From Bdellovibrionota bacterium (GTDB taxonomy: Bacteria > Bdellovibrionota_C > UBA2361 > OMIW01), in NCBI GenBank assembly GCA_044235645.1, contig JBIIHQ010000003.1, positions 64,320 through 128,319 on the forward strand: a stretch of 64,000 nt of DNA, given 5' to 3'. A program made the position numbers and the translations under genes. How positions within the stretch are numbered: the first letter of the stretch is position 1; each line of letters opens with the position of its first letter. Below are positions 14,037-60,896 of the stretch, piece after piece. A model generated the notes under the pieces. That model saw only the letters and a list, made by a program, of their open reading frames with translations, was not told where the DNA came from and searched no databases.

Positions 14037-17000
14037 ATGAATACTCCCTCTTCCCTCACTCATGACCTTATTCGCGCGAACGCGGGAACAGGGAAAACAT
14101 TTCAGCTCACGAACCGTTTTCTCTCGCTTATTCTGCGGGGGCATCCACCCGATTCGATCCTTGCGACAACCTTTACCCGCAAGGCGGCGAGTGAAATCCG
14201 CGAGCGCGTGTTTAAGCGGCTTCTCGAGGCCATGAACTCAAGCAAAGCGTGTGTGGAGCTTGGCAGTCATCTCGGTATTCCTGCACTCACTCTGGCTGAT
14301 TGCGAGCGAGCCTTCCTTTCGCTCCTTGCGACCCAGCATCGGCTCCGCATCGGCACGATCGATGCTCTCTTCATGGAGATAGCCCGGCTCTTTTTTATTG
14401 AGACCGGACTGCCGGCACGATGGGAGGTAAGCTCAATCGCCGATGATCACCGTGCGCTCTCCGAGGCAGTTCTTACAACTCTCGAACGGCACCAAGCCGA
14501 CGATGCTATCGGCGAAAAATGTGCCCGAATAATTGGTGAAAGGGCATCCTCAGCGATACTTACCCCGCTGATGCGTCACATTCGACCCGCGCTCGAACTC
14601 GCTCGCTCATCCTCTCCTGAATCATGGTCTACACCACTCTCATTGGCGGAGAATTCGTCGACAAATCTGCCCCTTCACACCTTTGCCTCGGCGCTCGCTG
14701 ATATGCCTCTTCCGATGACCAAGGGTAAGCCGCCTGCACCACATAAGACGTGGCTTAATGCGCGCAACAATCTTCTCACTCAAGTAACAGCGAGCGCTCC
14801 TTACGATATACTCGAACAATCGATTATTAAAAATCTTCTCAGCGGTGGCGATGGATTTGCGCGCCACCCTTTCACCGACGAGCACCGCGCAATTCTTTCA
14901 CCCCTCGCAAACGCAGCGGCCTCTCAGATCCTCGCTGACACCGTCACGCGCACCGCGGAGCTACGCGACCTTATCGACGCGACCCGCGCCACGCTTGATG
15001 CGATAAAATTCCGCACAAACAGCTACTCGTTTGATGACATCAAGCACATCCTTCGGTACGCCGCAGGACGCATCACTGAGCTCGATCTCTTCTTCCGACT
15101 CGATTGTACGATCCGCCACCTCCTCATCGACGAGTTTCAGGATACCTCGCTTGATCAGTGGACGGTATTAGAGCCCCTCGTCTCCGAGGTGCTTTCAGCA
15201 TCTCCTGGAGAACGCACTTTTTTAGTTGTGGGTGATGAAAAGCAATCGATATACGATTGGCGAGGCGGGACACCACACCTCTTTCGCTATCTCGAAGAGC
15301 GCTATTCATCGCTTACGGCCAAGCCGCTCTTCCGTTCGTTTCGCTCCTCCCAAGCGATTATGGCTCTCGTTAACACGATCCTGGATCGCAGCCCCACTTG
15401 CGCGGTAATTGCTTCGCATCCTCGAGTGGCTGAAGAATGGCTCGCTCGAACTAGTCATCACGAAACAACGCTAATGAGTCAGGGATACGTTCAGATTGAG
15501 CGATTCTCCAGGGATAAATCGGACGACACTGAGGATAGCGATCTGAGCGATGATATCACCGATGGGACAGAGGCAGATGCGGTTGATAAAGAGAATACTG
15601 GTATTCGGCGTGCGGTTGAACTGGTCGCCGAAATCCGCGCATCGTACCCGACCGCGACGGTAGGGATTCTGCTTCGTCGCAATAAGTACCAAACGACTAT
15701 CCTGGCTGAGCTGCTTCGTCGTGATATCGCTGCTTCAGGTGAGGGAGGAACTCCGCTCACCTCCTCCCCCGTGGTGCGATCATTGCTTGGCCTTCTAACC
15801 TGGATTGAGCACCCAGCAGATAAGGTAGCTCGTTTTCAGGTCGATCATACTCCTATTCGGGACGCATTTCCCGAATTATCCGGATCAATAGATGAGCGGT
15901 CATGGCTTGCAGAGCAGCGCTCCAGCGTGTGGCGATGGGGAATCGGAACGTATCTCGCGCGAGTGCTTGCCCGGATAGGGTTGGAGACGTCGGACGAGGC
16001 ATCGCTTATCGATCACTTTATCGATGCAGCGTACGAATCTGATGCGACCACTGAGAGCCCCGATATCGATCGCTTTTTGCGTGACATAGAAACCCGATCG
16101 GTATCTCTCGAGAGCCAGGCTTCCGTGCGGGTCATGACGATTCACAAGGCAAAGGGGCTCGAATTTGATGCCGTTATTCTCCTCGATCTCGAGAGCCCTG
16201 CCGTTTCTCGTCGCGGAGTCTCCTTTCTCACCGAGCGCGCTGGGCCTCTTGACCTACCGTCGGCCGTTTGGATCCGCCCTCGCAGCTCGGTGATGAAATA
16301 TCATGAGCGGCTCGTACGCGCGGACGAGGATGAAACAAATCGAGCACTCTCTGGTCAACTTGCGCTTCTCTACGTCGCCGTCACCCGAGCACGGCATGCG
16401 CTCTTTGTTCTTGTCGGGGACAAAATTCCGAAGACGAGCCTCAACGAACTACTCACCGCGACACTCGACCTACCGGGTGGGGATGCGACGATGGATGGGA
16501 GTTCTGATGATGATGTCGCCCCGAAGGAGAACACATCAGAGGGGGCCAATCCCTCCGCAGCGCGTATCGTCTACCACATCGGTGACCGCGCCTGGTATCG
16601 CTTCACTACCGCCCCCCCCTCTCCCACCACCAGCACTCACACCGTGGCTCGGCCGAACTTCCGTCCACCAACCGTTCTCCATCGGCGGGCCCTTCTCGCA
16701 CAAACTCCCTCAACCCGCGCTCTCACCAAGAGCTTCAACTCCGTTCTGAGCGAGGGCAGCGAGGCAGGCAAAAACTTCGGCGCCTTCGTACACGCCCTGT
16801 GCGAACAGATCACCTGGCTCACCGATTCGCCTGAGCTTACCGGCGATCCCACCGCCGTCGCCTACCTGCGCGATCGTCTCACCCGGCCTGCTGTCCGCTC
16901 CGTTTTCGATCCCGCTCACTATCCGGTTCCTCCCGGTGGCACCCGCGACCTGTGGCGCGAGCGCCCCTTCGCCCTCCGTTTGGGGGGCAAGGTCATCTCG

Positions 17001-17261
17001 GGCATCTTCGACCGAGTCGTCGTCATACGCTCCACAACCGGGACCCCGCTGCGAGCCCACCTCATCGACTTCAAAACTGATAGCTGCACTTCCGCTGACT
17101 CCGCAGCCATCGAATACCACACCGCCACCTATCGCCCGCAGATGACCATGTACCGCGCAGCGCTCGCGACTATGCTCGGCATCCAGGAGGATGCCGTCAG
17201 GGGTGAGCTGCTATTTCTTGAGGGTGGCGTTGCGGTTGACCTGTTTGGGAAAGTGAGATAG
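14037..17261 (+). CDS. addA: AddA-type UvrD/Rep-family helicase with C-terminal RecB-like nuclease.
   Basis: Walker A ANAGTGKTF. UvrD motifs (ILATTFTRKAASE, LLIDEFQDTS, VGDEKQSIYDWRG, MTIHKAKGLEFDAV). C-terminal GIFDRVVV...HLIDFKTDS nuclease motif. There is a 9-nt gap after addB. Confidence 0.8.
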   Translation: MNTPSSLTHDLIRANAGTGKTFQLTNRFLSLILRGHPPDSILATTFTRKAASEIRERVFKRLLEAMNSSKACVELGSHLGIPALTLADCERAFLSLLATQHRLRIGTIDALFMEIARLFFIETGLPARWEVSSIADDHRALSEAVLTTLERHQADDAIGEKCARIIGERASSAILTPLMRHIRPALELARSSSPESWSTPLSLAENSSTNLPLHTFASALADMPLPMTKGKPPAPHKTWLNARNNLLTQVTASAPYDILEQSIIKNLLSGGDGFARHPFTDEHRAILSPLANAAASQILADTVTRTAELRDLIDATRATLDAIKFRTNSYSFDDIKHILRYAAGRITELDLFFRLDCTIRHLLIDEFQDTSLDQWTVLEPLVSEVLSASPGERTFLVVGDEKQSIYDWRGGTPHLFRYLEERYSSLTAKPLFRSFRSSQAIMALVNTILDRSPTCAVIASHPRVAEEWLARTSHHETTLMSQGYVQIERFSRDKSDDTEDSDLSDDITDGTEADAVDKENTGIRRAVELVAEIRASYPTATVGILLRRNKYQTTILAELLRRDIAASGEGGTPLTSSPVVRSLLGLLTWIEHPADKVARFQVDHTPIRDAFPELSGSIDERSWLAEQRSSVWRWGIGTYLARVLARIGLETSDEASLIDHFIDAAYESDATTESPDIDRFLRDIETRSVSLESQASVRVMTIHKAKGLEFDAVILLDLESPAVSRRGVSFLTERAGPLDLPSAVWIRPRSSVMKYHERLVRADEDETNRALSGQLALLYVAVTRARHALFVLVGDKIPKTSLNELLTATLDLPGGDATMDGSSDDDVAPKENTSEGANPSAARIVYHIGDRAWYRFTTAPPSPTTSTHTVARPNFRPPTVLHRRALLAQTPSTRALTKSFNSVLSEGSEAGKNFGAFVHALCEQITWLTDSPELTGDPTAVAYLRDRLTRPAVRSVFDPAHYPVPPGGTRDLWRERPFALRLGGKVISGIFDRVVVIRSTTGTPLRAHLIDFKTDSCTSADSAAIEYHTATYRPQMTMYRAALATMLGIQEDAVRGELLFLEGGVAVDLFGKVR

Positions 17262-17542: not shown

Positions 17543-19240
17543 CTAGAGGGAAGTTTTATTGCTACTACCCGAGACCTCCACTCCGAGCGCCCTCGTGAGA
17601 TCGTTTAAGCCCGAGCTACCAATGCCTATCTCTCCTAATAGCGAGTCCACCAGGGGTTGCTGCGCCCGATACCGCAGCGCGCTACTGACGACCTGATCAG
17701 CCAGATTACCACCCTGAGTGCTAGGCTGACCGCCAGCCGCCTGGGAGGAAGCGGACCCACCGTCACTCCGAAGACCCTCGACCTGAACGATCTTAATCCC
17801 GTCGATTCTCTCCATAGGACGCACGGATTCGCGAATTATTTCGGGCAGCGCCTTGATAATCTCGAGCTTAACCTGCATCGCAATTTGCTCAATTGAAAGG
17901 GCATTCGCAGCCTCATTCAATGCTCGACGCCCAGCCGCATCAACCGAGTAGCGAACCTCACTTCCCTGCGCCCGCAGCCGCTCGGCGGCCGCATCCCCCT
18001 CGGCAATCATTGTCAGAGCATCTGCCTTGTCCCGAGCAGCCCTTTTTTCGGCATCTGCAGAGACCGTAATTCCGATCGACTCCTTCTCCGCATTCTTGGA
18101 TGCCTCAACAAGCTCAATCTGTTTCTGTCTCTCCGCTCGCTCGGTTTCTCGCACGGTTACTACCTGCTCTTCTGCCTTTACCGCGAGCGCGCGAGCTTTA
18201 TCTGCCATTGCCTGAGCTTCCGATTGGGCCTTTGAACGCTCCGCAACGGCTATCGCTAGATCCTGTCGTGCCAACTCAACCGATTTGGTGCGCTCAACAT
18301 CAGCCTGTTCGACTGCACGGTGTTTCTCGATTTCGCGCTCTTTAACCAGTTGCTCCATCTCCAGTTTTTTGCGATCGACTTCCTGCTGAGCGAGCAGCTG
18401 AGCTTCTCGCGCCTGACGGTCTTGTTCCGCTTTTTGCCTCGCAATATCCGCGCTCTGTTCCGCACGTCGAGTTTCCAGTTCTCGTTGTTGCTCAAGCCGG
18501 GCGTATTCCTCTTCACGCTGGAGCTCTAACTTTATCCTTTCCGCTTCAAGATTCTTCTGACGAATTAAAACCTCGGTATCCTGTTCGATATCGTTGCGCT
18601 GCTTACGTCTGTTTTCAATCTCCTCGGTCAATTTAGTCAGACCCTGGGCATCAAATGCGTTATCGGGATTTAGATACTCTTTGCCGGTTTGGTCGAGAGC
18701 CGTGAGGGATACCGATTCAAGTTCAAGGCCATTCTTTAATAAGTCCTCTGATACAGCCAGCTGGACCTTATTAACAAATTGGGTCCGTTGCTCGTGTAAC
18801 TCTTCCATTGCCATCTCTGCGGCTACCGAGCGAAGCGCATCAACAAATTTTCCCTCAACAAGCGTCCTCAGCTCTTGCGGGTCTAGCGTTTTTAAACCCA
18901 GAGTTTGCGCTGCATCAGCAATCGCCTCCACTATCGGTTTTACTCGAACGTAAAACTCTGCCTCTACATCGACCCTCATTCTATCCCTCGTAATAAGGGC
19001 CTGTTCATTCGCCCGACGAACCTCGAGTCGAAGGGTATTCATGTTGACCGGTATCGTCTCGTGCAGAATCGGAAAAACGAGCGCTCCGCCATTCATGATT
19101 ACCCGCTGTCCGCCGAAGCCGGTCCTTACAAACGACACCTCCTTGGAGGCTCGTCGGTACAGACGACTTACGATCAGTCCTAACGTCAATAGCGCAATGA
19201 ATACCGTTGATGCAGCGAATATGATGTAGTTAATCGCCAT
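17543..19240 (-). CDS. Flotillin-like SPFH/band-7 protein (YqiK/FloT type).
   Basis: N-terminal TM. SPFH domain (VRTGFGGQRVIMNGGALVFPILHE...LRLEVRRANEQALITRD). Long EA-rich coiled coil (QREEEYARLEQQRELETRRAEQ...). 565 aa, a typical flotillin size. Confidence 0.8.
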   Translation of the reverse strand: MAINYIIFAASTVFIALLTLGLIVSRLYRRASKEVSFVRTGFGGQRVIMNGGALVFPILHETIPVNMNTLRLEVRRANEQALITRDRMRVDVEAEFYVRVKPIVEAIADAAQTLGLKTLDPQELRTLVEGKFVDALRSVAAEMAMEELHEQRTQFVNKVQLAVSEDLLKNGLELESVSLTALDQTGKEYLNPDNAFDAQGLTKLTEEIENRRKQRNDIEQDTEVLIRQKNLEAERIKLELQREEEYARLEQQRELETRRAEQSADIARQKAEQDRQAREAQLLAQQEVDRKKLEMEQLVKEREIEKHRAVEQADVERTKSVELARQDLAIAVAERSKAQSEAQAMADKARALAVKAEEQVVTVRETERAERQKQIELVEASKNAEKESIGITVSADAEKRAARDKADALTMIAEGDAAAERLRAQGSEVRYSVDAAGRRALNEAANALSIEQIAMQVKLEIIKALPEIIRESVRPMERIDGIKIVQVEGLRSDGGSASSQAAGGQPSTQGGNLADQVVSSALRYRAQQPLVDSLLGEIGIGSSGLNDLTRALGVEVSGSSNKTSL

Positions 19241-19304: not shown

Positions 19305-20000
19305 TTAGTCCGTGTCGTCTTCGATACAAAAAAAACGCGCCCCCACCTTTTTTACCAATATCACTCGACCTCCCGATGGGATGGCAGCCTGACCTTCGTC
19401 GAGCTCAACCAAGACATAGTGATGCTGCCCATATTCATCACGTACCTTCGCTTGCACCGCCGTCCCTACCTGCGCGGTACCCAGAACTATGGTTGCGCTG
19501 CGACCGATAAATGAATCGTCGGTAATCGCTGAAGACTCATCCCCTGGGAGGATCTGTGCTAAACCCTTGCCTGTGAGTCGCGTCAGAGGACCCGCAACGA
19601 CGAGGGCCAATGGAACCGCTAGTAGGGCAGGCGGGTAGGCGCCGATCAGACTTCCGACCAGCAGTTGGATTCCTATTCCGCAGACACCGAACAGGCAGAG
19701 AAAAACAACGAGAACCATCAAAACGGGGACCTTGCCAATCCGTATCCACCCTATTAGCTTGGTAAAGATAGAGCCACCATGACCCGCAGCATCCAAGGCA
19801 GCTGGCGTATCGAGCGCGCCTGCATGGGGTAAACCTGAGGAACCATCTAAGACATCAATATCAGGAATCCAGCTATCAATGATCTGAGAAAGACCAAATC
19901 CACCAACAATTGATAGTCCCTCTATTGCCGCGATGACGATCATCAGAATAAGGGCGGACAGAAATACTATATTTGCATCCGAGGTTAAAAACGCGATCAT
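19305..20000 (-). CDS. NfeD-like membrane protein (partner of SPFH proteins).
   Basis: Multiple TM helices followed by a C-terminal OB-fold-like segment (VGTAVQAKVRDEYGQHHYVLVELDEGQAA). Sits immediately upstream of the flotillin gene on the same strand, the canonical NfeD-flotillin pairing. Confidence 0.65.
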   Translation of the reverse strand: MIAFLTSDANIVFLSALILMIVIAAIEGLSIVGGFGLSQIIDSWIPDIDVLDGSSGLPHAGALDTPAALDAAGHGGSIFTKLIGWIRIGKVPVLMVLVVFLCLFGVCGIGIQLLVGSLIGAYPPALLAVPLALVVAGPLTRLTGKGLAQILPGDESSAITDDSFIGRSATIVLGTAQVGTAVQAKVRDEYGQHHYVLVELDEGQAAIPSGGRVILVKKVGARFFCIEDDTD

Positions 20001-20019: not shown

Positions 20020-20739
20020 TCAGTCTTGGTCGGAATCATCACTCCTGCTGACACTCGCTTTGTGTGCCGCAAGACGCTCCTGGATCCTGTTTTTTCTGCT
20101 CATACCCTCTAACTCGGCCAGTTTTGATGCGGTATGGACATCGCTACTCAGAACCCCCGATGGCAATCCGGTAGCGCGTTGGATCAGCCTTTCAAAAGCT
20201 GCTTCCGCGTGCTCTACCTTTCTGCGAACCATCTCAAGGTCCCTATTTTTCTCCGAGTCCCTCTCGCCACCGAGCCCTTTTACTCTTTGAGCTCGGTACT
20301 GGACTATCTCCTCGCGCATCTCGCTAATTCGCCCCTGTAAAGCACGTAGATAACCCTCGAGCTCCTTCTCTCGCTCCTCGATATCGACGAGTGATTGCTC
20401 TATGACCGGGATTTGCGCCTCGATATCTAGCTGCACCGCGATCGCCGCCTCGGCGAGGTCGTCGCGTTTTTGGTCTATTGCAATCAACAGTTTTTCCTGC
20501 AGCTCGTCATGTTTCCGATTCGCCTCGAAGAGTCGACGTGTTGCAAGATGTTTCTGGGCAAGCTGCCGTCCGAGCTCATTTCGCACTTCGTCCAGGGCAC
20601 TCTCAATCTCCCGAACCGTCTGCTCTAGAACGGTATCTTGATCAGCACCCTCAATCACCTCAATCAGCCGATTTACCCCTCCGGCCAATACTCGCCTCAC
20701 CCGCGTTTTGATACTCTCTGCCATATCGACCATCCCCAA
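20020..20739 (-). CDS. pspA: PspA/IM30-family (phage-shock protein A / Vipp1-like) coiled-coil protein.
   Basis: 239 aa, all-helical. N-terminal MAESIKTRVRRVL...VREIESALDEVRNELGRQLAQKHLATRRL matches the PspA/IM30 profile. Confidence 0.75.
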   Translation of the reverse strand: MGMVDMAESIKTRVRRVLAGGVNRLIEVIEGADQDTVLEQTVREIESALDEVRNELGRQLAQKHLATRRLFEANRKHDELQEKLLIAIDQKRDDLAEAAIAVQLDIEAQIPVIEQSLVDIEEREKELEGYLRALQGRISEMREEIVQYRAQRVKGLGGERDSEKNRDLEMVRRKVEHAEAAFERLIQRATGLPSGVLSSDVHTASKLAELEGMSRKNRIQERLAAHKASVSRSDDSDQD

Positions 20740-20774: not shown

Positions 20775-21389
20775 CTAGCTGTCAGCGTCGGTCACCAGCA
20801 CTGCGCTGAGGGGGTCGCAAACGGCGCTAGATCTGACGGCATCTATCTGATTGAGAGCCGGCGATTTCCGCGTCTTGGTGGAAACGACAAGCTCTACCAG
20901 CTCCTGAATTACCGAGAGATTCGACGATATAACGGCGGGATCATAACAAGGCTCCTCTCGCGTCACCGCCAATCGCAACGCGCCCTCCATTAAGCCAAAG
21001 ACCTCACCGACCAACTCCTTCTCAAATCGTCGAAGCGCCTCAGATTCGGTGACATCGGCAGGCAAGGTTGTTTTCGCTATAGGTTTTTTCAGAAACAAGG
21101 ACATAAACCCGGGGAGCCAACCACCAATCCTCGCGACAAACTCCGAATGTATCGCGGCGGCGCCCTGAACTGCCCGCACCTCCTGGTAGCGTCGTTCTAT
21201 AATCGACATGATGAAGGCAACTGATTCCTCCGGCTCGGTAGCTGATCGATGCCGCTCTCTTGCCTCACCAATGAGAGCGCGCACCTTTTCACTTGCTGTT
21301 ACCGCTCCCGGCACCGCGAGGCGGGCGAGAAACGCAGCATCTTCGTGACTTATGCGGACACTGAGGGGGACTGTTTTTACCATAATCAC
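20775..21389 (-). CDS. Hypothetical protein with an N-terminal ribbon-helix-helix-like segment. First gene of the PspA-NfeD-flotillin operon and a candidate regulator.
   Basis: N-terminal LSVRISHEDAAFLARLA...SEKVRALIGEA fits a beta-strand / helix / helix RHH pattern. No other recognisable domain. Confidence 0.4.
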   Translation of the reverse strand: MIMVKTVPLSVRISHEDAAFLARLAVPGAVTASEKVRALIGEARERHRSATEPEESVAFIMSIIERRYQEVRAVQGAAAIHSEFVARIGGWLPGFMSLFLKKPIAKTTLPADVTESEALRRFEKELVGEVFGLMEGALRLAVTREEPCYDPAVISSNLSVIQELVELVVSTKTRKSPALNQIDAVRSSAVCDPLSAVLVTDADS

Positions 21390-21425
21390 CTCACTTCATG
21401 AGACGTTTACTTAAGTATACATAAA

Positions 21426-21461
21426 ACATGTATATGTATGCAAATGCATACATATACATGT
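21426..21461. promoter_or_regulatory. 36-bp AT-rich palindrome ACATGTATATGTATGCA-AA-TGCATACATATACATGT in the promoter region of the 4-gene minus-strand operon. Candidate operator.
   Basis: Read directly from the sequence. Perfect 17-bp arms with a 2-bp spacer, 37-72 bp upstream of the 21389 start codon. CGTTTAC direct repeats sit at 21404-21410 and 21464-21470. The element is AT-rich in a ~60% GC genome. Confidence 0.55.
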
Positions 21462-21477
21462 GCCGTTTACAGATACT

Positions 21478-21792
21478 CGGCAGCACTCCCTGCCGACCGC
21501 GCCCCCCGATGTTTCCGTTAGACTTCAACAGAGTGAAACCGGTCTCTCGTCACCGGGCATCTTCTACGAGCTCGGCAACCACAGCTGGTGTCCCTTTACT
21601 TCCGATCGCCCCTCGACCCCGTCCTTTAGAACCGACGGCTGCACCCTACCGATGCAAATGCTAACGAGCGCCAGATCGAGACGTGTCAGCCCAGGATGGC
21701 CCTCTCCCGAGCAGCTCTCGCGACGATCCTTGGCATTCAGGAGGAATACCGTAATGGGTCACCTGCTGTTTCTTGATGATGATTTTGTGGGG
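21478..21792 (+). pseudogene. Frameshifted remnant homologous to the C-terminal ~110 codons of addA (nuclease motif through the C-terminal tail).
   Basis: Frame of ORF 21460..21831 gives LPTAPPDVSVRLQQSETGLSSPGIFYELGNHSWCPFTSDRPSTPSFRTDGCT. This aligns with AddA YPVPPGGTRDLWRERPFALRLGGKVISGIFDRVVVIRSTTGTPLRAHLIDFKTDSCT. After a +1 shift, QIETCQPRMALSRAALATILGIQEE aligns with AIEYHTATYRPQMTMYRAALATMLGIQED, and then GHLLFLDDDFVG aligns with GELLFLEGGVAV. Nucleotide blocks are also shared (gggcatcttc..., ctcgcgac.atcct.ggcat.caggagga). Confidence 0.6.
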
Positions 21793-22136
21793 AACTATTT
21801 CAGAAGGGGTGACGATTGGCGAAAAATATAGCGGAGACCAATCAGGCGCATTCCCGTGCAGTGCCTCACATGGTCCGAATCCCGCCCGATTACCACCTTT
21901 CGCTTCACAATGATTAAGCAACCAGTGCAATGTCACTTCCGACACCCGGTCACCTATAGCTCCTGGGGAGAATTTCTCCAGCCATGCAATCCGTGGTGAT
22001 ACAACGGCGGTTCCAGACCCACATCAAGAGTCCACGACCGCGGCCGACCATGATATGACGCCCAAAATGTCGACCCTTCATGTCAGTTTCAACACGATGC
22101 GTCACAAACACAGGGGGAACATTAAAGGAGACTTAA

Positions 22137-23273
22137 TTACCGGGACAACGCCAAAAAAATTATCAATCCCGCCAAGAGAGCGAAAAGCAGAATTGAGAGC
22201 CAGTACGTTATCTCTTGATTGTTCGTTGCTTTTACGGCCGAGTCAGCCGTTTCAATCGGATGGGAAACCTCATGGTCATCATGTAATTTTTGCTCTATTT
22301 TACTATCGGTGTCGACGCGGTCGAGAAGGTGTCTGCTTCGTGGAGAAGATATGGGGCTCCCGACTAACATCTTTAAAGCATCACAAAACTCGCTCGCAGT
22401 GCGAAATCGAGCATCGACGTTAGTCGCAAGGGCTTTCATTATGATCTCGGAGAGTGCTCTCGACACGGCACTCCTTTTTTCTCGTGGATCAGGGGGGGGA
22501 CGAGACACTTTTGATTCTATCGTCTCGCAAAGATTCAGTCCCCAAAAAGGCGGCTCTCCGACGAGCATTTCATAACCGATAGCCCCCAGAGCATAAACAT
22601 CCCCCTGTCGGACAACTATCCCCTTCTCTAGGTATTCCGGGGACAGATACGAAAGAGTGCCAACAATCGACCCTTTCGTAGTTAGCCGTTGCCCATACCC
22701 ACAATATGCAACGCCAAAATCGGATATCTTGGGCTCCCCTTGTCGGGTCACCAGGATATTCTCTGGTTTCAGGTCTCGATGAATAACTCCTGCTCTGTGA
22801 ATCGCCTCAAGACCTCTCCCGATCCGCATGAGCACTTCTATGCATTTTTGTTCGTCGAAAGGCCCCTGAGAGGCGAGGATTCGGGAAAGATCGCCACCGT
22901 CGACATACTCCATTGAGTATCCGACATGATTGTCAAAACCGATAAACTGAATAGCCCCCACTACATTCGGGTGAGCTACTCTGAAGAGCGCATCGACTTC
23001 ACGATGAAACCTGACGAAGAGAGGATTGCTCTCTCCATCGGCGACAATCGAGGGAAAAAGCATCTTGACCGCGACCAAAGGGGGTGGAGAGAGATCATCT
23101 TCCAGAACTTCCGATACGTACACCACCCCCATCCTGCCAATCTCAAGGCAGCGCATAATCCGGTAGACTCTTCCTACAAGAGTACCCGGCTCTAGAATGT
23201 TGAGATCCTGATTGGTAGAACCATCCCAATTGTTGGGTGAGTCCGAGAGGATCTCGTACAAATCTTTTCCCAC
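22137..23273 (-). CDS. Hanks-type Ser/Thr protein kinase with C-terminal membrane anchor.
   Basis: VAVK ATP-binding lysine, HRDLKPENILV catalytic loop, DFG, SPE motifs. C-terminal TM ITYWLSILLFALLAGLIIFLAL. Confidence 0.8.
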   Translation of the reverse strand: MGKDLYEILSDSPNNWDGSTNQDLNILEPGTLVGRVYRIMRCLEIGRMGVVYVSEVLEDDLSPPPLVAVKMLFPSIVADGESNPLFVRFHREVDALFRVAHPNVVGAIQFIGFDNHVGYSMEYVDGGDLSRILASQGPFDEQKCIEVLMRIGRGLEAIHRAGVIHRDLKPENILVTRQGEPKISDFGVAYCGYGQRLTTKGSIVGTLSYLSPEYLEKGIVVRQGDVYALGAIGYEMLVGEPPFWGLNLCETIESKVSRPPPDPREKRSAVSRALSEIIMKALATNVDARFRTASEFCDALKMLVGSPISSPRSRHLLDRVDTDSKIEQKLHDDHEVSHPIETADSAVKATNNQEITYWLSILLFALLAGLIIFLALSR

Positions 23274-23489: not shown

Positions 23490-25226
23490 TCACCCCTCCG
23501 AGCGTCGTGGGGCCAGATGTAGCATCATTTGCGCAAAAGGTATCGTCCAGCTAAACGCATTACACGCCTCGATAAAGAATTGTCGAACACTTCTCCTTAA
23601 TTTTTCGTAGTGCTCGGCTAATTCTCCCAGACAATCGCAAAAAACTATCAGTTCGAGCGAAGATGATGCCGCCGAGTGAACCTCAACTGACACTTGAACG
23701 AGATCCTCACCGAATCCCAAGTCCCTCAATTTCTCCTGAATAAATTCCCGGAGCTTCGGGACCATCTCGACCAACAGTTGTTTTTGATGTCGGTAATCCA
23801 ATCCAAATATTTCGGCTAAACGAAATCCCCGGGAGAGAACTCGCGGATGAAGGGAGAGAAACGATGCCGTCGGGTAGTTTTTGTAGGCACCTCCCACAAG
23901 GTCCACCCTTACTAATTCCGGGGTCTGCAGAGCTATCTGTCCGAGTACGTCATCGGCCAAAATTACCCAGTCCCCTTCCTTCGTGGGAAAGAGCTTTTCC
24001 CTTGGATTCAGCGGCCGAGATCGGAGAGAAAGCAGGTGGTTGAGAGGAACCCTCACAAACCCGCCCGATAGCCGAGGATTTATCAGCTGGCTGTGGAGAT
24101 TGAGTCGCTGCACAATCCACGGAAGCTGGTCGATTACCACCACCTCTCCTTCCCGAACTGAACCGACGTTCATCAATAGGGATAACTGTGCCCAAAATCG
24201 TGCGAACGCCTCCTTCGACGTCCAGACAATTCCCACGAGGAGCGCAATTGTAAGGATGAGAAGTACCCAATCACCAAAAAAATAAAGTACGACCGCAAAC
24301 ATTAAGAGGGAGCCCATACCGACTCCTCCCATCGCCACGAGATTCAGAAATCGCATCGGCATCGAGGCTTGACGAAGAGCAAAGAACGAAAGCCTCATTG
24401 ACCTCTTCCACACCTCATGAGCCAGAACCCAAAAAAGAACTGCAGCTATCAGTGCAACAAGAAGATTCCTCCCACGACTCCTGAAAAAGAGACCAAATAA
24501 CTCTACCAGAGCCGCCGAGAGTGAGATTTTTTCGGCCTCCTTCTGTTGAAGTCGCTGGCGATTAATCTCGATATCGGTCGAAGTCGCTCTCTTTTGAGCT
24601 TCCCACGAGGCGGTCACTTCATCGATTTCATCGAGGACCTCTTTATCAGAGAGCTGTGCACGAGAGATACCAATGTTTTCAATCGCCTTGTCAATCCGAG
24701 AGAGTCGAAGCTGACCCCTTACGATATCTGAACGAATCCTTTCAATTTCCCGTGGTCGCCGAGTAAGCTCCTTCAGCTCCTTTATGAGCGGTCCGAGGAG
24801 AGCTCGCAATTCTTTATCTAGGTCAAGCTCTTGCTGCTCCGTAGACTCTTCAAGCCCCGAGCGATCCGTTTGAGATACTAATTCCGAAAAAGTCTCCTTC
24901 AGTGTATCTCGCTGCTCTCGAAGGTTCTTCAGTTCTGCTCTGGCCTCCTCCTCCTTGCCCAGAGCCTGGCCACCCCTTAGTTCTTTGGTCTTATCCTTGA
25001 TAGTGATATCGAGCAAAGAAACTGACTCGACCACAGATCGGAGCCTTTCTTGTAGTGGCGGACCTTCCTCCACCTCCTCTTCACCCTTATCAGAGGCCCG
25101 ATCAGGCGACTGCGCATCCGATAATGGAATGAAAAATCCGACAGAGACTATCACCGCTGCCGCGAGCCTGCTCTCCCAACGAAGAGTTGTCCTTAACGCT
25201 CGCAGAACCCCACCACTGTGGTTCAC
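23490..25226 (-). CDS. MscS-family mechanosensitive channel with a long N-terminal coiled-coil (periplasmic) domain. Start re-assigned to GTG at 25226.
   Basis: MscS beta-domain (GDWVILADDVLGQIALQTPELVRVDLVGGAYKNYPTASFL) preceded by TM helices. GTG at 25226 is preceded by a perfect TAAGGAGG SD and yields signal peptide ...RLAAAVIVSVGFFIPLSDA. This also removes the 80-nt overlap with dut. Confidence 0.7.
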   Translation of the reverse strand: MNHSGGVLRALRTTLRWESRLAAAVIVSVGFFIPLSDAQSPDRASDKGEEEVEEGPPLQERLRSVVESVSLLDITIKDKTKELRGGQALGKEEEARAELKNLREQRDTLKETFSELVSQTDRSGLEESTEQQELDLDKELRALLGPLIKELKELTRRPREIERIRSDIVRGQLRLSRIDKAIENIGISRAQLSDKEVLDEIDEVTASWEAQKRATSTDIEINRQRLQQKEAEKISLSAALVELFGLFFRSRGRNLLVALIAAVLFWVLAHEVWKRSMRLSFFALRQASMPMRFLNLVAMGGVGMGSLLMFAVVLYFFGDWVLLILTIALLVGIVWTSKEAFARFWAQLSLLMNVGSVREGEVVVIDQLPWIVQRLNLHSQLINPRLSGGFVRVPLNHLLSLRSRPLNPREKLFPTKEGDWVILADDVLGQIALQTPELVRVDLVGGAYKNYPTASFLSLHPRVLSRGFRLAEIFGLDYRHQKQLLVEMVPKLREFIQEKLRDLGFGEDLVQVSVEVHSAASSSLELIVFCDCLGELAEHYEKLRRSVRQFFIEACNAFSWTIPFAQMMLHLAPRRSEG

Positions 25227-25242
25227 CTCCCCCCTCCTTAGA

Positions 25243-25782
25243 TTACCTACCGGTTGAGCCAAAACCTCCACAACCACGAATACTTTGCCCAAGCTCCTCC
25301 AATGAGCTAACCTCCACCCCATCCCCTAAATGCGGAACAACCACCATCTGCGCAATCTTCGTGCCCGCTTCTACCAAAAACGGCTCCCCTGACCGATTAA
25401 CGATCACAATCTTCACTTCGCCCCGGTAGGATGCGTCAATTACCCCCGCATGAGTATGAATACCCCGGAGGGCCACACTACTTCTATCCTTGATAATACC
25501 CACCCATCCAACCGGGATCGCGCAGAAGAGCCCTGTCGGGACCAATGTTTGCTCACCTGGAGAAATTGAGAGCGAGATGGCAGCCCGTAGGTCAAACCCC
25601 GCATCTCCTTCCCGAGGGCTAGTAAAGGAAGCTCCCGCTCCGCGGGCTTCCTCAGATATCCAGTACCGAAAGGGAGGGCGCTCAAACTGAGGGATCAGGC
25701 GAGCTTCAACCCTTCGCCCTTGAGAATCCGACGACCTATTATTAGTCTTCGTGTCCTCGTCTTTCGCCGGTACTGAAGCCAT
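25243..25782 (-). CDS. dut: dUTP diphosphatase (dUTPase).
   Basis: dUTPase motifs AGFDLRAA, GWVGIIKDRSS, HAGVIDASYRGEVKIVIVN, and C-terminal RGCGGFGSTG. Start placed at the MASVP Met; the upstream portion of the ORF overlaps the pnp stop. Confidence 0.7.
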   Translation of the reverse strand: MASVPAKDEDTKTNNRSSDSQGRRVEARLIPQFERPPFRYWISEEARGAGASFTSPREGDAGFDLRAAISLSISPGEQTLVPTGLFCAIPVGWVGIIKDRSSVALRGIHTHAGVIDASYRGEVKIVIVNRSGEPFLVEAGTKIAQMVVVPHLGDGVEVSSLEELGQSIRGCGGFGSTGR

Positions 25783-58273: not shown

Positions 58274-58520
58274 ATACTCCTTGGCCCGCAACAACGACCG
58301 GCATTTTACGATACCCTTTGCCACGCCGTGGGGGTCATTCGCGAGATACCACGAGAGGCTCGGAGGAAGTACAGCCCCGGATGGTTCAAGCATCCTCGTC
58401 CCACATCCCCCGCTTCATCACCTAATCGACTCTGACCTGCGAGGTTCTGCCGTGCGAGACCGTCATCGTTCAAGCCGTTTCTCCCCCCGTTCATCTCGGG
58501 CAAAAGCGTCCCGCATCGGA

Positions 58521-60896
58521 ATGATATCACCACCCGAGGGTTTGAAGCGAACGGTTCGGAAAGACCTCAAAGCGGCTACCCTTCGTGGGATGGCGCTCTT
58601 TGAAATGGCGCTCGTTCTCCCCATTTTCATTCTTGGCAGCACCGCACTCGTGGATACCGCTGCGCTCCTGCGGACCCGAAATGCTCTCAAAGAGGCCGCC
58701 CAAGCATCGGTCCGGTGCCTCACCACGACCGACTCCCAGTGCGCTCCGATCACAATCACCCCTGAGCGCACTCGGCAGTACCGCTATTTTCTGCCGACTA
58801 TTACCCCAACGGTGTACGGTAATATGACGGAAGTGCCAGCGACTATCGAGGAACGCCGGGCACCGGTCCACCGATTTGAGTTCGATGCTCACATTTTAGG
58901 AACGATCGACACGGCGGAACCTCGGCAGCAATATCAGGTGGTGACCCAGGGTGTGCGCGCGACAAAGGAGGTTCGGTACGTTTCAGAGCACTTTGGCTAC
59001 TTTGTAGACCATGTGAGGGACGCCCAGTTCAGGGTTTTTGTTGGGAGCAATTCGAACATTGAAATCAAGCCCGATATTAGCCTGACGGAGCAAGATAAGT
59101 TCAGGAGTGCGACGGGCCAGACAAGCCTTACGACGGGACAAAGCCTCTCGTTTTCGGTGATAATTCCTCGACCCAAAAGTCTGGAGGGTTTTGGAAAATC
59201 ATCTACCTGTACCACCAGCGAGATTGAGGATGGGCAAAGTTTAAGCCCCTGTCATCTTGTGTACGATAGGGATAAGAATCAGCTCTTTACTTCCGCGATG
59301 TTTGTATTGGAAGGGATAGGACATGGCTCAGCGAGAGGAGACCTTACCTCAGCGAATGTCCTTCTTAGTCTCGAGTTCAACAACGGTGCCCAGATGTTAG
59401 ATCTAGGGGGCCGCACTTTCGGTCTTACCGGAGGGCAGACATCCGCTGACTTCGTTCCTCGGGGTGCACCGACTATCGCGACGAGTGCTGCAGCGAAGGG
59501 TGCTTACCGTGAAATTACCCTTCACGATGCCAAGAAGGTTATTGTTCCTCTCGACAAACCGATCACTTTTCGTTTGCAGTTGGCCGGTGCCGCTGATCAT
59601 CAAAGGGCAGGCACAAACGCCTCCTGGACTCCGACCGGTCTGAAAATCTACCTGCCAACTTTCACTTCTAAGAGGGCAAATCTCCCCTGTCAGGAGAACT
59701 CGTGTGGTGCACTGGCAAAGGGAAATGGCTCATGCACAACATCCCCAAACGTGCCTGGTTCCGTTGACAATCTTTACTACACCGAGCCGATATCATCCAT
59801 CAGGACTGCATGTGTCATCGCGAGCCATGCGCCGCAACCTACCGAGCACATCGAAATCCCGCACACGGGGATTGTCTGCTCCCCCGAGGTCATTGAAACG
59901 GCCCCCACCGTATGCTCCCCCCTCATAACCACTCACACCTGCAATCCCTCGAACACGGGAATCAACCAGCCCATCATCAACGGTAAGGTAACGGCATCGG
60001 TCAATGACCTCCTGGTGGCATGCGATCCAAAGCCAAAGCCGAGTGGATCGCATCTGCTCGACTCTGCCACCGCGACCGTTACCACCAAACGGGTAACCGC
60101 CCCTAATACCACCACCCCCATCACCGCTACGGCCCCAAGAACCACCTGCGCCGCAGCACCCACAATATCCCGCAACAAGTTCCCTGCTGAAGTTCAGAGC
60201 TACGCTGTGGTAACCCCCATCGATCACGGTGCCATCGCAGGTACCTTTGCGGATATCCCTTCTTCGGCCGCCTCTCAACCACAGGATTCGCTCGCGTGCC
60301 TGCCGACCCGTGAGCTCACCAATGATGAGGAACCTAACATCCTGAAGGGTTACGCATTCCTGACAACGCCACACCGCGACCTTGGGTGCGCCCGGCCAAC
60401 GACGCTCGCAGCAGCCAAAGCTCAGGTCGAGCAGGACGCCCGGTATCGGGTAACATTTGGCTCACCACTGGTGACTGGTCGGTTCGCATTTTCCGAAGGT
60501 ACGACTCCCGATAGCTGCACCCCCCACACTGTCAGCACACCGGAAATATCGCCGAAAGACCTCCTCGATCTTGGCGTATTCCCAGAACCATCCATGCCCC
60601 CTCAGTGCACAGCCACGCAATGTATGAGGGAATTTGCCGGCTTTGCCGGAACCTCTGAAACGAATCCACCGAGAGTGAACATTGCCGCCGCGATCGCCGA
60701 GGCGAAAGCCGCCACAAGAGCCTACCTCCCTAATTCCCAGCCAGAGGATCTCCAGATCGAGATAACCCCTTCATCCGCCGACACAGCCACTCCCGTTACC
60801 TATCGAGTGACCACTCAGATGACCGTTCCATTGAGCTTCAATCGAAGCTCAATGGTGGTGCACGTTGCACATGGAAAGCGCGAAGTCGCGGGGTAA
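58521..60896 (+). CDS. Giant TadE-like-domain protein: N-terminal TadE/TadG-type pseudopilin-like segment followed by a ~700-aa Thr/Pro/Ser-rich extracellular region.
   Basis: Start placed at ATG 58521 (MISPPEGLKRTVRKDLKAATLRGMALFEMALVLPIFILGSTALVDTAALL, a TadE-like prepilin-type hydrophobic helix). No vWA motif was found in the large C-terminal part. Confidence 0.5.
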   Translation: MISPPEGLKRTVRKDLKAATLRGMALFEMALVLPIFILGSTALVDTAALLRTRNALKEAAQASVRCLTTTDSQCAPITITPERTRQYRYFLPTITPTVYGNMTEVPATIEERRAPVHRFEFDAHILGTIDTAEPRQQYQVVTQGVRATKEVRYVSEHFGYFVDHVRDAQFRVFVGSNSNIEIKPDISLTEQDKFRSATGQTSLTTGQSLSFSVIIPRPKSLEGFGKSSTCTTSEIEDGQSLSPCHLVYDRDKNQLFTSAMFVLEGIGHGSARGDLTSANVLLSLEFNNGAQMLDLGGRTFGLTGGQTSADFVPRGAPTIATSAAAKGAYREITLHDAKKVIVPLDKPITFRLQLAGAADHQRAGTNASWTPTGLKIYLPTFTSKRANLPCQENSCGALAKGNGSCTTSPNVPGSVDNLYYTEPISSIRTACVIASHAPQPTEHIEIPHTGIVCSPEVIETAPTVCSPLITTHTCNPSNTGINQPIINGKVTASVNDLLVACDPKPKPSGSHLLDSATATVTTKRVTAPNTTTPITATAPRTTCAAAPTISRNKFPAEVQSYAVVTPIDHGAIAGTFADIPSSAASQPQDSLACLPTRELTNDEEPNILKGYAFLTTPHRDLGCARPTTLAAAKAQVEQDARYRVTFGSPLVTGRFAFSEGTTPDSCTPHTVSTPEISPKDLLDLGVFPEPSMPPQCTATQCMREFAGFAGTSETNPPRVNIAAAIAEAKAATRAYLPNSQPEDLQIEITPSSADTATPVTYRVTTQMTVPLSFNRSSMVVHVAHGKREVAG

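Follow-up and report, generated by a model that had tools for sequence, protein, structure and literature searches.

Locus and gene content

We analysed a 64-kb stretch (64,000 nucleotides; hereafter the window) of contig JBIIHQ010000003.1 (positions 64,320 to 128,319) from a Bdellovibrionota bacterium. The subject of this study is a perfect palindrome that lies, together with two flanking copies of the heptamer CGTTTAC, upstream of a four-gene operon encoded on the minus strand. The first gene of the operon (gene 1) encodes a protein belonging to a family for which we found no Pfam or NCBIfam model. The three genes that follow encode a PspA/IM30 homolog, a YqiJ-type (NfeD-like) membrane protein and a flotillin. 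A first-pass annotation, made from the same DNA, had predicted a PspA-NfeD-flotillin operon, and this was confirmed by matches to the PspA_IM30, YqiJ_N plus YqiJ_OB, and Band_7 plus Flot domains. The same annotation proposed that the palindrome could be the operator of a dimeric repressor, possibly bound by the product of gene 1, which was thought to have a ribbon-helix-helix (RHH)-like N-terminus. Alternatively, it could be the end of an inserted element.

The start of gene 1 is most likely the ATG at 21383 rather than the GTG at 21389, because the GTG sits within a GAGGTG Shine-Dalgarno sequence and because the homologs align from the methionine encoded at 21383. The palindrome would therefore lie 43-78 nt upstream of the start codon, and not 37-72 bp as had been measured from the GTG.

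The family of gene 1 is small and lacks annotation. In a set of 5.8 billion proteins it amounts to 33 clusters (90% identity), almost all of them metagenomic, and a scan of JGI metagenomes using a 12-sequence subset of the family as the query identified 181 relatives. The named genomes with relatives are confined to the Alphaproteobacteria Kordiimonas and Parvularcula/Aquisalinus. Where the available DNA suffices, the genes downstream of gene 1 on the same strand are those for PspA in 57/63, YqiJ in 42/46 and flotillin in 34/38 distinct loci. The homolog loci span 35-74% GC, thus the order gene 1-PspA-YqiJ-flotillin is maintained across very different organisms.

The palindrome and the flanking heptamers

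The palindrome is a perfect 17-2-17 inverted repeat, ACATGTATATGTATGCA-AA-TGCATACATATACATGT, with arms of 17 nt at 21426-21442 and 21445-21461, a spacer of 2 nt and 100% complementarity, just as the first-pass annotation described it. No other perfect inverted repeat in the window is as long, and 20 dinucleotide-type shuffles of the window gave arms of at most 13 nt, compared to the 17 observed. The runner-up, with arms of 12 nt, is located at 60828-60855 (CCATTGAGCTTC-AATC-GAAGCTCAATGG; 12-4-12), just inside the 3' end of an open reading frame (ORF) on the plus strand (58281-60896). Local GC content drops to 0.36-0.41 at the palindrome. The window mean is 54.7%, lower than the background of about 60% that had been assumed.

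The CGTTTAC heptamers, one on each side of the palindrome (21404-21410 and 21464-21470), are indeed identical. The direct repeat extends to 14 nt with 12/14 identity (CATGnGnCGTTTAC), and its copies are 60 bp apart, start to start. The heptamer pair alone is unremarkable, as several other 7-mer pairs repeat within about 100 bp in this region. Read on the operon strand, the whole feature is GTAAAC-GGC-ACATGT-ATAT-GTATGC-ATTT-GCATAC-ATAT-ACATGT-TTTAT-GTATAC-TTAA-GTAAAC. A scan of Rfam returned only sub-threshold eukaryotic miRNA hairpins (at most 29.6 bits, compared to gathering scores of 76-101).

The palindrome and heptamers could mark an inserted element, as its scar or its end, that is, a recombination site, an inverted repeat or a target-site duplication. 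Consistent with this possibility, an addA-like C-terminal remnant about 190 bp away suggests insertion of the operon block beside addA. The remnant had been reported previously and is real, but it is not immediately adjacent to the palindrome, as had been stated. Several results argue against an inserted element. We found no second copy of the 17-mer arm in the window, even when up to 3 mismatches were allowed (0.03 expected), and a BLASTN search of the 86-bp region against plasmid and phage collections gave no match. No transposase or integrase is encoded by the neighbouring genes. The lone match in a collection of reference genomes is to an orthologous operator (see below), and the heptamers align to operator units of relatives. 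The origin of the feature as an inserted element is thus largely refuted, and we consider it the least probable of the explanations discussed here. For similar reasons the palindrome does not belong to a repeat family dispersed over unrelated loci: the copy in the window is unique, and the reference-genome match to its 20-mer core occurs only at the orthologous site.

A phased array of 10-bp units upstream of gene 1 homologs

We extracted the DNA upstream of each gene 1 homolog, which yielded 82 distinct regions, 76 of them at least 120 nt long. The hexamers GTATAC, TGTATA, TACATA and GCATAC are 50-200 times enriched in these 76 regions relative to coding DNA of the same loci. For the core GYWWRC we counted 136 occurrences in the upstream regions, versus 36 +/- 5 in dinucleotide shuffles. 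Distances from core to core peak at 10 bp (30 observed versus 0.1 expected), with further peaks at 20/21, 30/31 and 41 bp. An iteratively refined position weight matrix (PWM) converged on a palindromic unit of 10 bp, WTGTATACAW, or in more detail W-T-G-[T>c,a]-A-T-[A>t,g]-C-A-W, in which the G and C are nearly invariant. Two or more units are present in 58/76 regions and three or more in 32/76, compared to a coding background of 0.08 per 160 nt. Most units occur 40-100 nt ahead of the start codon.

The array is tightly linked to gene 1. Phased pairs of strong units were identified upstream of gene 1 in 57/82 loci, and in two more once the automatic start assignment was corrected, whereas none were found elsewhere in 306 kb of homolog loci. 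The units are also linked to promoter-like sequences. In the family as a whole, units follow TTGAC at offsets of +7 to +11 or +17 to +20, and in 36/43 regions that have a promoter-like match (TTGACA/TATAAT-like) a unit falls within the -35 to -10 span. What the present data show directly is the cis-element itself, together with its phasing and conservation, its occurrence with gene 1 and nowhere else, and the way it overlaps conserved promoter-like boxes.

Two of the homolog loci (numbered with the prefix L) deserve comment. In L009 (protein P0020, 3001-3576) the true start is probably downstream of the called one, as the first 21 codons overlap a TTGACA box and units; the conserved sequence MPDKSVSLSVR begins at residue 22 of this homolog. 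In L010 (2810-2935; Parvularcula flava / Aquisalinus luteolus) inspection by eye showed a tRNA-like stretch, its anticodon CAU, and after it a terminator hairpin rich in GC; the two directly abut the array on its upstream side. The entire regulatory region of this locus is only about 90 nt long.

Predicted operator units and promoter boxes in the window

The interval 21404-21470 coincides with a predicted array of five 10-bp units, three strong (U1, U2 and U3) and two weak (U0 and U4; Table 1). U1 and U2 form the central 20 bp of the palindrome in mirror orientation. The 21 bp that separate U2 from U3 are one of the distances preferred by the family. Phased units occur in the window only at 21413, 21434 and 21444. 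The first-pass interpretation of the palindrome as a promoter-associated operator is therefore supported, by motif conservation, phasing, promoter overlap and an identical 20-bp core at the orthologous place in another genus (see below); the idea of a single dimer site is replaced by that of an array.

Conservation in relatives is concentrated in the units. The blocks ACATTTGCATAC (U2), TGTATACTT (U3) and AAGTAWRC are common to the window and to relatives with protein identities of 45-74%, and the remaining intergenic DNA is not conserved. The U2 block is kept in L001, L011 and L004, and the U3 block is likewise kept in relatives.

Comparison to relatives also suggests a role for the heptamers. 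L001, L011 and L005 carry AAGTATGC, which has a canonical core, 10 bp past their U3, where it aligns with U4 of the window. L001 and L011 have GTATAC / GCATAC 20 bp upstream of their own U1, the position of U0 in the window. GTAAAC, the core of both weak units, is a recurrent variant in the family, and Parvularcula flava has an in-phase unit of this type (ATGTAAACGG, 7.2 bits). From these alignments, the CGTTTAC heptamers are best read as degenerate outer operator units and not as target-site duplications.

The spacer between the predicted -35 and -10 boxes is 18 nt in the window. Relative to a predicted transcription start at about 21407, the palindrome extends from about -54 to -19 and U3 from -15 to -6, and U4 lies on the start site. 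This placement of units has the geometry expected for repression by occlusion of the promoter.

The product of gene 1 could instead bind the array to activate the promoter or to remodel it, perhaps through DNA bending or wrapping. Arrays reach upstream of the -35 box at many loci and, in the window, the predicted -35 box is weak and the spacer is 18 nt. However, units lie inside the -35 to -10 span in the large majority of regions with a promoter-like match (see above), the -10 box and start site of the window are covered, and most characterised RHH regulators are repressors (PMC3413123). We therefore regard activation as very improbable.

Table 1. Predicted genes, operator units and promoter elements at the gene 1 locus (positions in the window).
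Feature	Position	Strand	Remarks
Gene 1, 202 aa, proposed autorepressor	20775..21383	-	Predicted RHH-like N-terminus (~4-49) and four-helix C-terminal domain; no Pfam family
PspA/IM30 homolog (PspA_IM30)	20020..20739	-	Domain match
YqiJ-type (NfeD-like) membrane protein, YqiJ_N + YqiJ_OB	19305..20000	-	Domain match
Flotillin, YqiK-like, Band_7 + Flot	17543..19240	-	Domain match
Shine-Dalgarno GAGGTG	21387..21392	-	3 nt before ATG 21383; kept in relatives
Perfect 17-2-17 palindrome	21426..21461	.	Holds U1 and U2 plus a symmetric 8-bp extension per side (ATAT spacer and ACATGT pseudo-core)
U1, ATGTATGCAT, core GTATGC	21444..21453	-	PWM 12.4-14.0 bits; within the 20-mer found exactly in Kordiimonas
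U2, TTGCATACAT, core GCATAC	21434..21443	-	PWM 13.1-14.3 bits; 10 bp from U1; contains predicted -35 box
U3, ATGTATACTT, core GTATAC	21413..21422	-	PWM 10.8-12.9 bits; 21 bp from U2; overlaps predicted -10 box
U4 (weak), AAGTAAACGT, core GTAAAC	21403..21412	-	Downstream CGTTTAC; <4 bits; 10 bp from U3; at predicted transcription start
U0 (weak), CTGTAAACGG, core GTAAAC	21463..21472	-	Upstream CGTTTAC; <4 bits; 19 bp from U1
Predicted -35 box TTGCAT	21438..21443	-	Read by eye; TTGCAT in L001, L011 and L004; TTGACA in L005
Predicted -10 box TATACT	21414..21419	-	Predicted from conservation; predicted start ~21407

Conservation of the core and variability of the arms

The 20-mer core of the palindrome, ATGTATGCAAATGCATACAT, has one exact match in a reference genome collection of 185,579 species, in Kordiimonas gwangyangensis. 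At this locus (L007, region 1774-1871), 36 nt separate the match from the longest ORF of a gene 1 homolog downstream of it, and a gene for a PspA homolog comes next. About 0.5 matches to a 20-mer are expected by chance in a collection of this size, and a chance match at the orthologous position is very unlikely. BLASTN did not align the DNA of the Kordiimonas locus to the window, so this locus is not the source of the sequence in the window. The longest Kordiimonas ORF starts with MSDGDSAKTKGGYAMGAKSVPLS, and the 20-bp core is 97 nt upstream of the methionine that aligns with the family. Either this homolog has an N-terminal extension of 14 residues or the transcript has a long leader.

Seven contigs from the same population share the kinase gene upstream of the operon, and the 317 nt upstream of gene 1 are identical in all of them save at one place. 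The sole polymorphism, in L091 and L094 (1184-1500, aligned to 21384-21700 of the window), changes the promoter-proximal outer right arm of the palindrome from ATATACATGT to ATATG-ATGT. The change disrupts the outer arm and does not touch the 20-bp core; with it the promoter spacer drops from 18 nt to 17 nt, the value also found in relatives. Long perfect palindromes centred on unit pairs were identified at a few other loci (14-2-14 in L067, 11-0-11 in L081 and 10-2-10 in Kordiimonas). Arms at most homolog loci measure just 4-7 nt, which puts the window at the extreme end of the range.

These comparisons single out the two-unit core as the functional element that is conserved. Its extension to perfect 17-bp arms is a polymorphic elaboration specific to this lineage and is probably not essential. 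The arms may add a secondary role. We speculate that the arms arose by template-switch correction of a quasi-palindrome.

An alternative is that the hairpin works chiefly on the minus strand, as an intrinsic terminator or as an insulator that would protect the operon against read-through from the kinase gene (22137-23273). This gene is upstream in the same orientation, the palindrome forms a stable RNA hairpin (-28.6 kcal/mol, z = -4.9), and a scanner flags a terminator-like minus-strand hairpin with a 16-pair stem followed by TTTTATGTATA (tail UUUUAUGUAU). However, the stem is AT-rich (5/16 GC pairs) and is followed by just four consecutive U, and shuffled sequences yield 0.9 such hits, so that one match is at chance level. 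Relatives retain the units without the long hairpin, in some cases downstream of a divergent gene (e.g., L001), thus termination cannot be the conserved function. The variant in L091 and L094 disrupts an arm. We consider it unlikely that termination is the chief function of the hairpin, although the palindrome could act as a terminator or insulator in a secondary capacity in the lineage of the window.

The gene 1 protein

The AlphaFold model of the gene 1 product has a mean predicted local distance difference test (pLDDT) score of 84.6. Residues 1-12 are extended, residues 13-21 and 30-49 form helices, and four long helices follow. The pLDDT is about 93 for residues 11-40, and a model of the isolated N-terminus shows the same elements. 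The predicted model thus includes a strand-helix-turn-helix topology of about 45 residues, as in RHH transcription factors. Two residues of the strand, S8 and R10, do not vary in the family, and neither do T29, S31, K33 and R35, which lie where helix 2 begins. Within the strand, K-T-V-P-L-S-V-R-I, the hydrophobic residues V5, L7, V9 and I11 alternate with S8/R10. This pattern of residues in the sequence and the model is that predicted for an RHH domain. The gene 1 product is likely a member of the RHH superfamily.

One fragment is named RelB/DinJ antitoxin in JGI. A type II antitoxin of this kind was considered and rejected: no toxin domain was identified, and the next genes encode PspA, YqiJ and flotillin in nearly all loci.

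Covariation of protein and DNA provides the best evidence in this study that the gene 1 product is the binder. At the S8 position, Ser occurs in 66 loci, with 138 GHATDC cores and 1 GWTAAC core upstream. Gly occurs at this position in 7 loci (L061, L064, L069, L071, L070, L073 and L089), with 10 GWTAAC and 6 GHATDC cores upstream. The arrays at the Gly loci keep the 10-bp phasing. A Ser-to-Gly change accompanied by a shift from GYATAC to GWTAAC is the pattern that would be expected if the strand reads bases directly, and the S8 position is therefore a candidate single-residue specificity switch. The change also lends indirect support to a putative homodimer in which a two-stranded sheet shared between the chains would touch the bases; the models themselves are of single chains. 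The earlier suggestion that an RHH-like product of the first gene binds the palindrome gains support from this linked change in motif and predicted DNA-reading residue.

Proposed mechanism

We propose, with a probability of roughly 0.75, that the palindrome forms the core of an operator with five units (~21403-21472) and that this is the putative multi-dimer autorepressor site of the promoter for gene 1, PspA, YqiJ and flotillin. We infer from the sequence comparisons and the structural model that the gene 1 product has an RHH fold, binds the array, represses rather than activates the operon, and responds to an inducing signal. Dimers of the protein would insert a two-stranded beta-ribbon (residues ~4-11, KTVPLSVR) into the major groove of each unit, with Ser8 and Arg10 of the ribbon facing the DNA. 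Units are spaced by one helical turn, and adjacent dimers would cooperate on one face of the DNA. Dimers on U1 and U2 would shield the -35 box along with the adjoining upstream DNA, those on U3 the -10 box, and those on the weak U4 the start site. An operator occupied in this way would exclude RNA polymerase, and the operon would repress itself. A signal received by the C-terminal four-helix domain would lift repression. Our guess is that this signal is envelope or membrane stress, perhaps communicated via PspA.

Several observations weigh against this proposal. At the level of DNA, the outer 7-8 bp of each arm and both GTAAAC units score poorly on the PWM, and part of the 67-bp feature is therefore unexplained by the unit model. 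Neither the invariant G nor the invariant C is present in the ACATGT pseudo-core of the outer arm, which has a poor score; the ATAT spacer is typical of the family. A consensus promoter scan of 21200-22300 called no promoter. The boxes read by eye match the consensus at 8/12 positions, which accounts for the silence of the scanner, and the promoter assignment thus derives from conservation. The Fisher test of Ser/Gly against core type (p = 5e-11) ignores phylogeny, and the Gly loci represent two protein lineages, KMVxIGARV and xTKQ[IV]GVRL.

At the level of the protein, profile searches of the PDB with the whole family and with the N-terminal 52 residues returned nothing relevant, and Foldseek searches of the PDB with the full and N-terminal models gave no match with E < 2. 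An alignment to Arc using hhalign placed the strand and helix in the right register but was not significant (E = 0.055), and hhalign to CopG gave no match. Scans of the N-termini against Pfam, NCBIfam and PHROGs gave only weak hits. In favour of the RHH assignment, the Pfam hits that recur at the N-termini, all below threshold, include RHH_1, NikA-like and DUF6290; we take the latter two to be RHH-type families.

Given the lack of PDB or Foldseek matches to support the RHH assignment, the units could be the target of another regulator whose gene lies elsewhere, such as a GntR-type protein acting on the TGTATACA-like palindrome, and gene 1 could have another role. Cores of this type resemble generic GntR-type operators, and their occurrence in the operators of other families counts against our proposal as well. 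On the other hand, the array is found only upstream of gene 1 homologs, in loci of 35-74% GC, and no other regulator gene is conserved across the homolog loci. In addition, the motif changes along with a residue of gene 1. We judge a different regulator to be improbable, slightly more so than a terminator, and favour autorepression by the gene 1 product.

A more specific version of the autorepressor proposal is that the C-terminal four-helix domain is captured and released by an assembly of PspA, flotillin and YqiJ. Gene 1 would then define a new and widespread class of envelope-stress regulators, re-targetable by exchanging one residue of the ribbon (Ser for GYATAC, Gly for GWTAAC). This extension is tentative, and we place it well below the autorepressor proposal in probability.

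Other features of the locus

The kinase gene directly upstream of the operon (22137-23273, minus strand) encodes a eukaryotic-type Ser/Thr protein kinase and is also there in L091-L094. Beyond it is an ORF of 610 aa (23490-25322, minus strand) without a convincing Pfam match.

The AddA-like remnant is encoded on the plus strand at 21651-21758 (with the feature extending to 21800). Its translation, RMALSRAALATILGIQEEYRNG, aligns to QMTMYRAALATMLGIQEDAVRG, positions 1021-1056 of the product of the intact gene at 14037-17261, with 18/36 residues identical (E = 2e-6). The remnant is frameshifted: HLLFLDDDFV, in another frame, matches ELLFLEGGVAV. The operon thus has the intact addA-like gene on one side and, on the other, an old copy of that gene's 3' end, which suggests that the four-gene block was inserted or recombined in beside addA. 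A 94-aa ORF (21661-21945, minus strand) that overlaps the remnant was called as a gene in L093, but it is probably not a real gene.

Relation to known regulators and significance

In Arc and Mnt of phage P22 the operator consists of two adjacent subsites about one turn apart that overlap the promoter and are bound by a dimer of dimers. The predicted gene 1 system shares with these a small N-terminal strand-helix-helix module and adjacent subsites about one turn apart over the promoter. It differs in that no sequence relationship is detectable (hhalign to Arc, above), in the extra C-terminal four-helix domain of about 150 residues, and in arrays of up to 4-5 units, each of which is palindromic. 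NikR, also an RHH protein, has the operator GTATGA-N16-TCATAC, with half-sites two turns apart that are bridged by a metal-binding tetramerisation domain. NikR resembles the predicted architecture of the gene 1 product in combining an RHH with a C-terminal regulatory domain, and its half-site is close to the GTATGC / GCATAC cores found here. NikR has no known sequence similarity to gene 1, and we detected no ACT-like domain in the gene 1 product.

RHH repressors bind as at least two dimers, cooperatively, to arrays of regularly spaced short sites, and at least two adjacent sites are required (PMC3413123). The met-boxes of MetJ, the ACTC boxes of ParG and the sites of CopG are arrays of spaced short boxes, direct or inverted, with AT-rich spacers, on which neighbouring dimers bind cooperatively (PMC3413123). 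The arrays reported here share this arrangement of DNA sites and would be bound in a similar way. They differ in their period, which is 10 bp rather than the 8 bp of met-boxes and of ParG boxes plus spacers, in the unit WTGTATACAW, and in their target, a chromosomal membrane-stress operon rather than a plasmid or methionine regulon. Overall, the unit sequence and 10-bp period, the extra C-terminal domain and the target operon set the predicted system apart from known RHH systems.

Known regulators of PspA systems include PspF with PspA feedback, LiaFSR, ClgR and a PadR-like/HAAS pair (PMC11237479; PMC9239133). As in those systems, a putative dedicated regulator gene adjoins the pspA homolog and presumably links expression to envelope stress. 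Unlike them, gene 1 has no sigma-54 AAA+, two-component, helix-turn-helix or PadR domain. The partner-switching feedback suggested above would resemble that of PspA and PspF, on a different DNA-binding scaffold. A survey of Psp systems described operons of PspA with band-7/flotillin and YqiJ that have a CesT/Tir partner, and reported an RHH factor only in a separate, polyamine-linked operon (PMC11237479). Our literature searches found no description of the gene 1 regulator or its operator.

Membrane repair depends centrally on PspA/IM30 and flotillin modules, whose regulation is known in only a few models (PspF, LiaRS, ClgR and PadR-like). The analysis assigns a likely function to the gene 1 family, which lacks a Pfam or NCBIfam model. 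The regulator family appears to be dedicated to PspA-YqiJ-flotillin operons. While the proposed mechanism is conventional, for this widespread type of operon, present in many uncultured lineages, the results provide a testable regulator-operator pair that is defined by the 10-bp unit, its phasing, its position relative to the promoter and a candidate specificity-determining residue.

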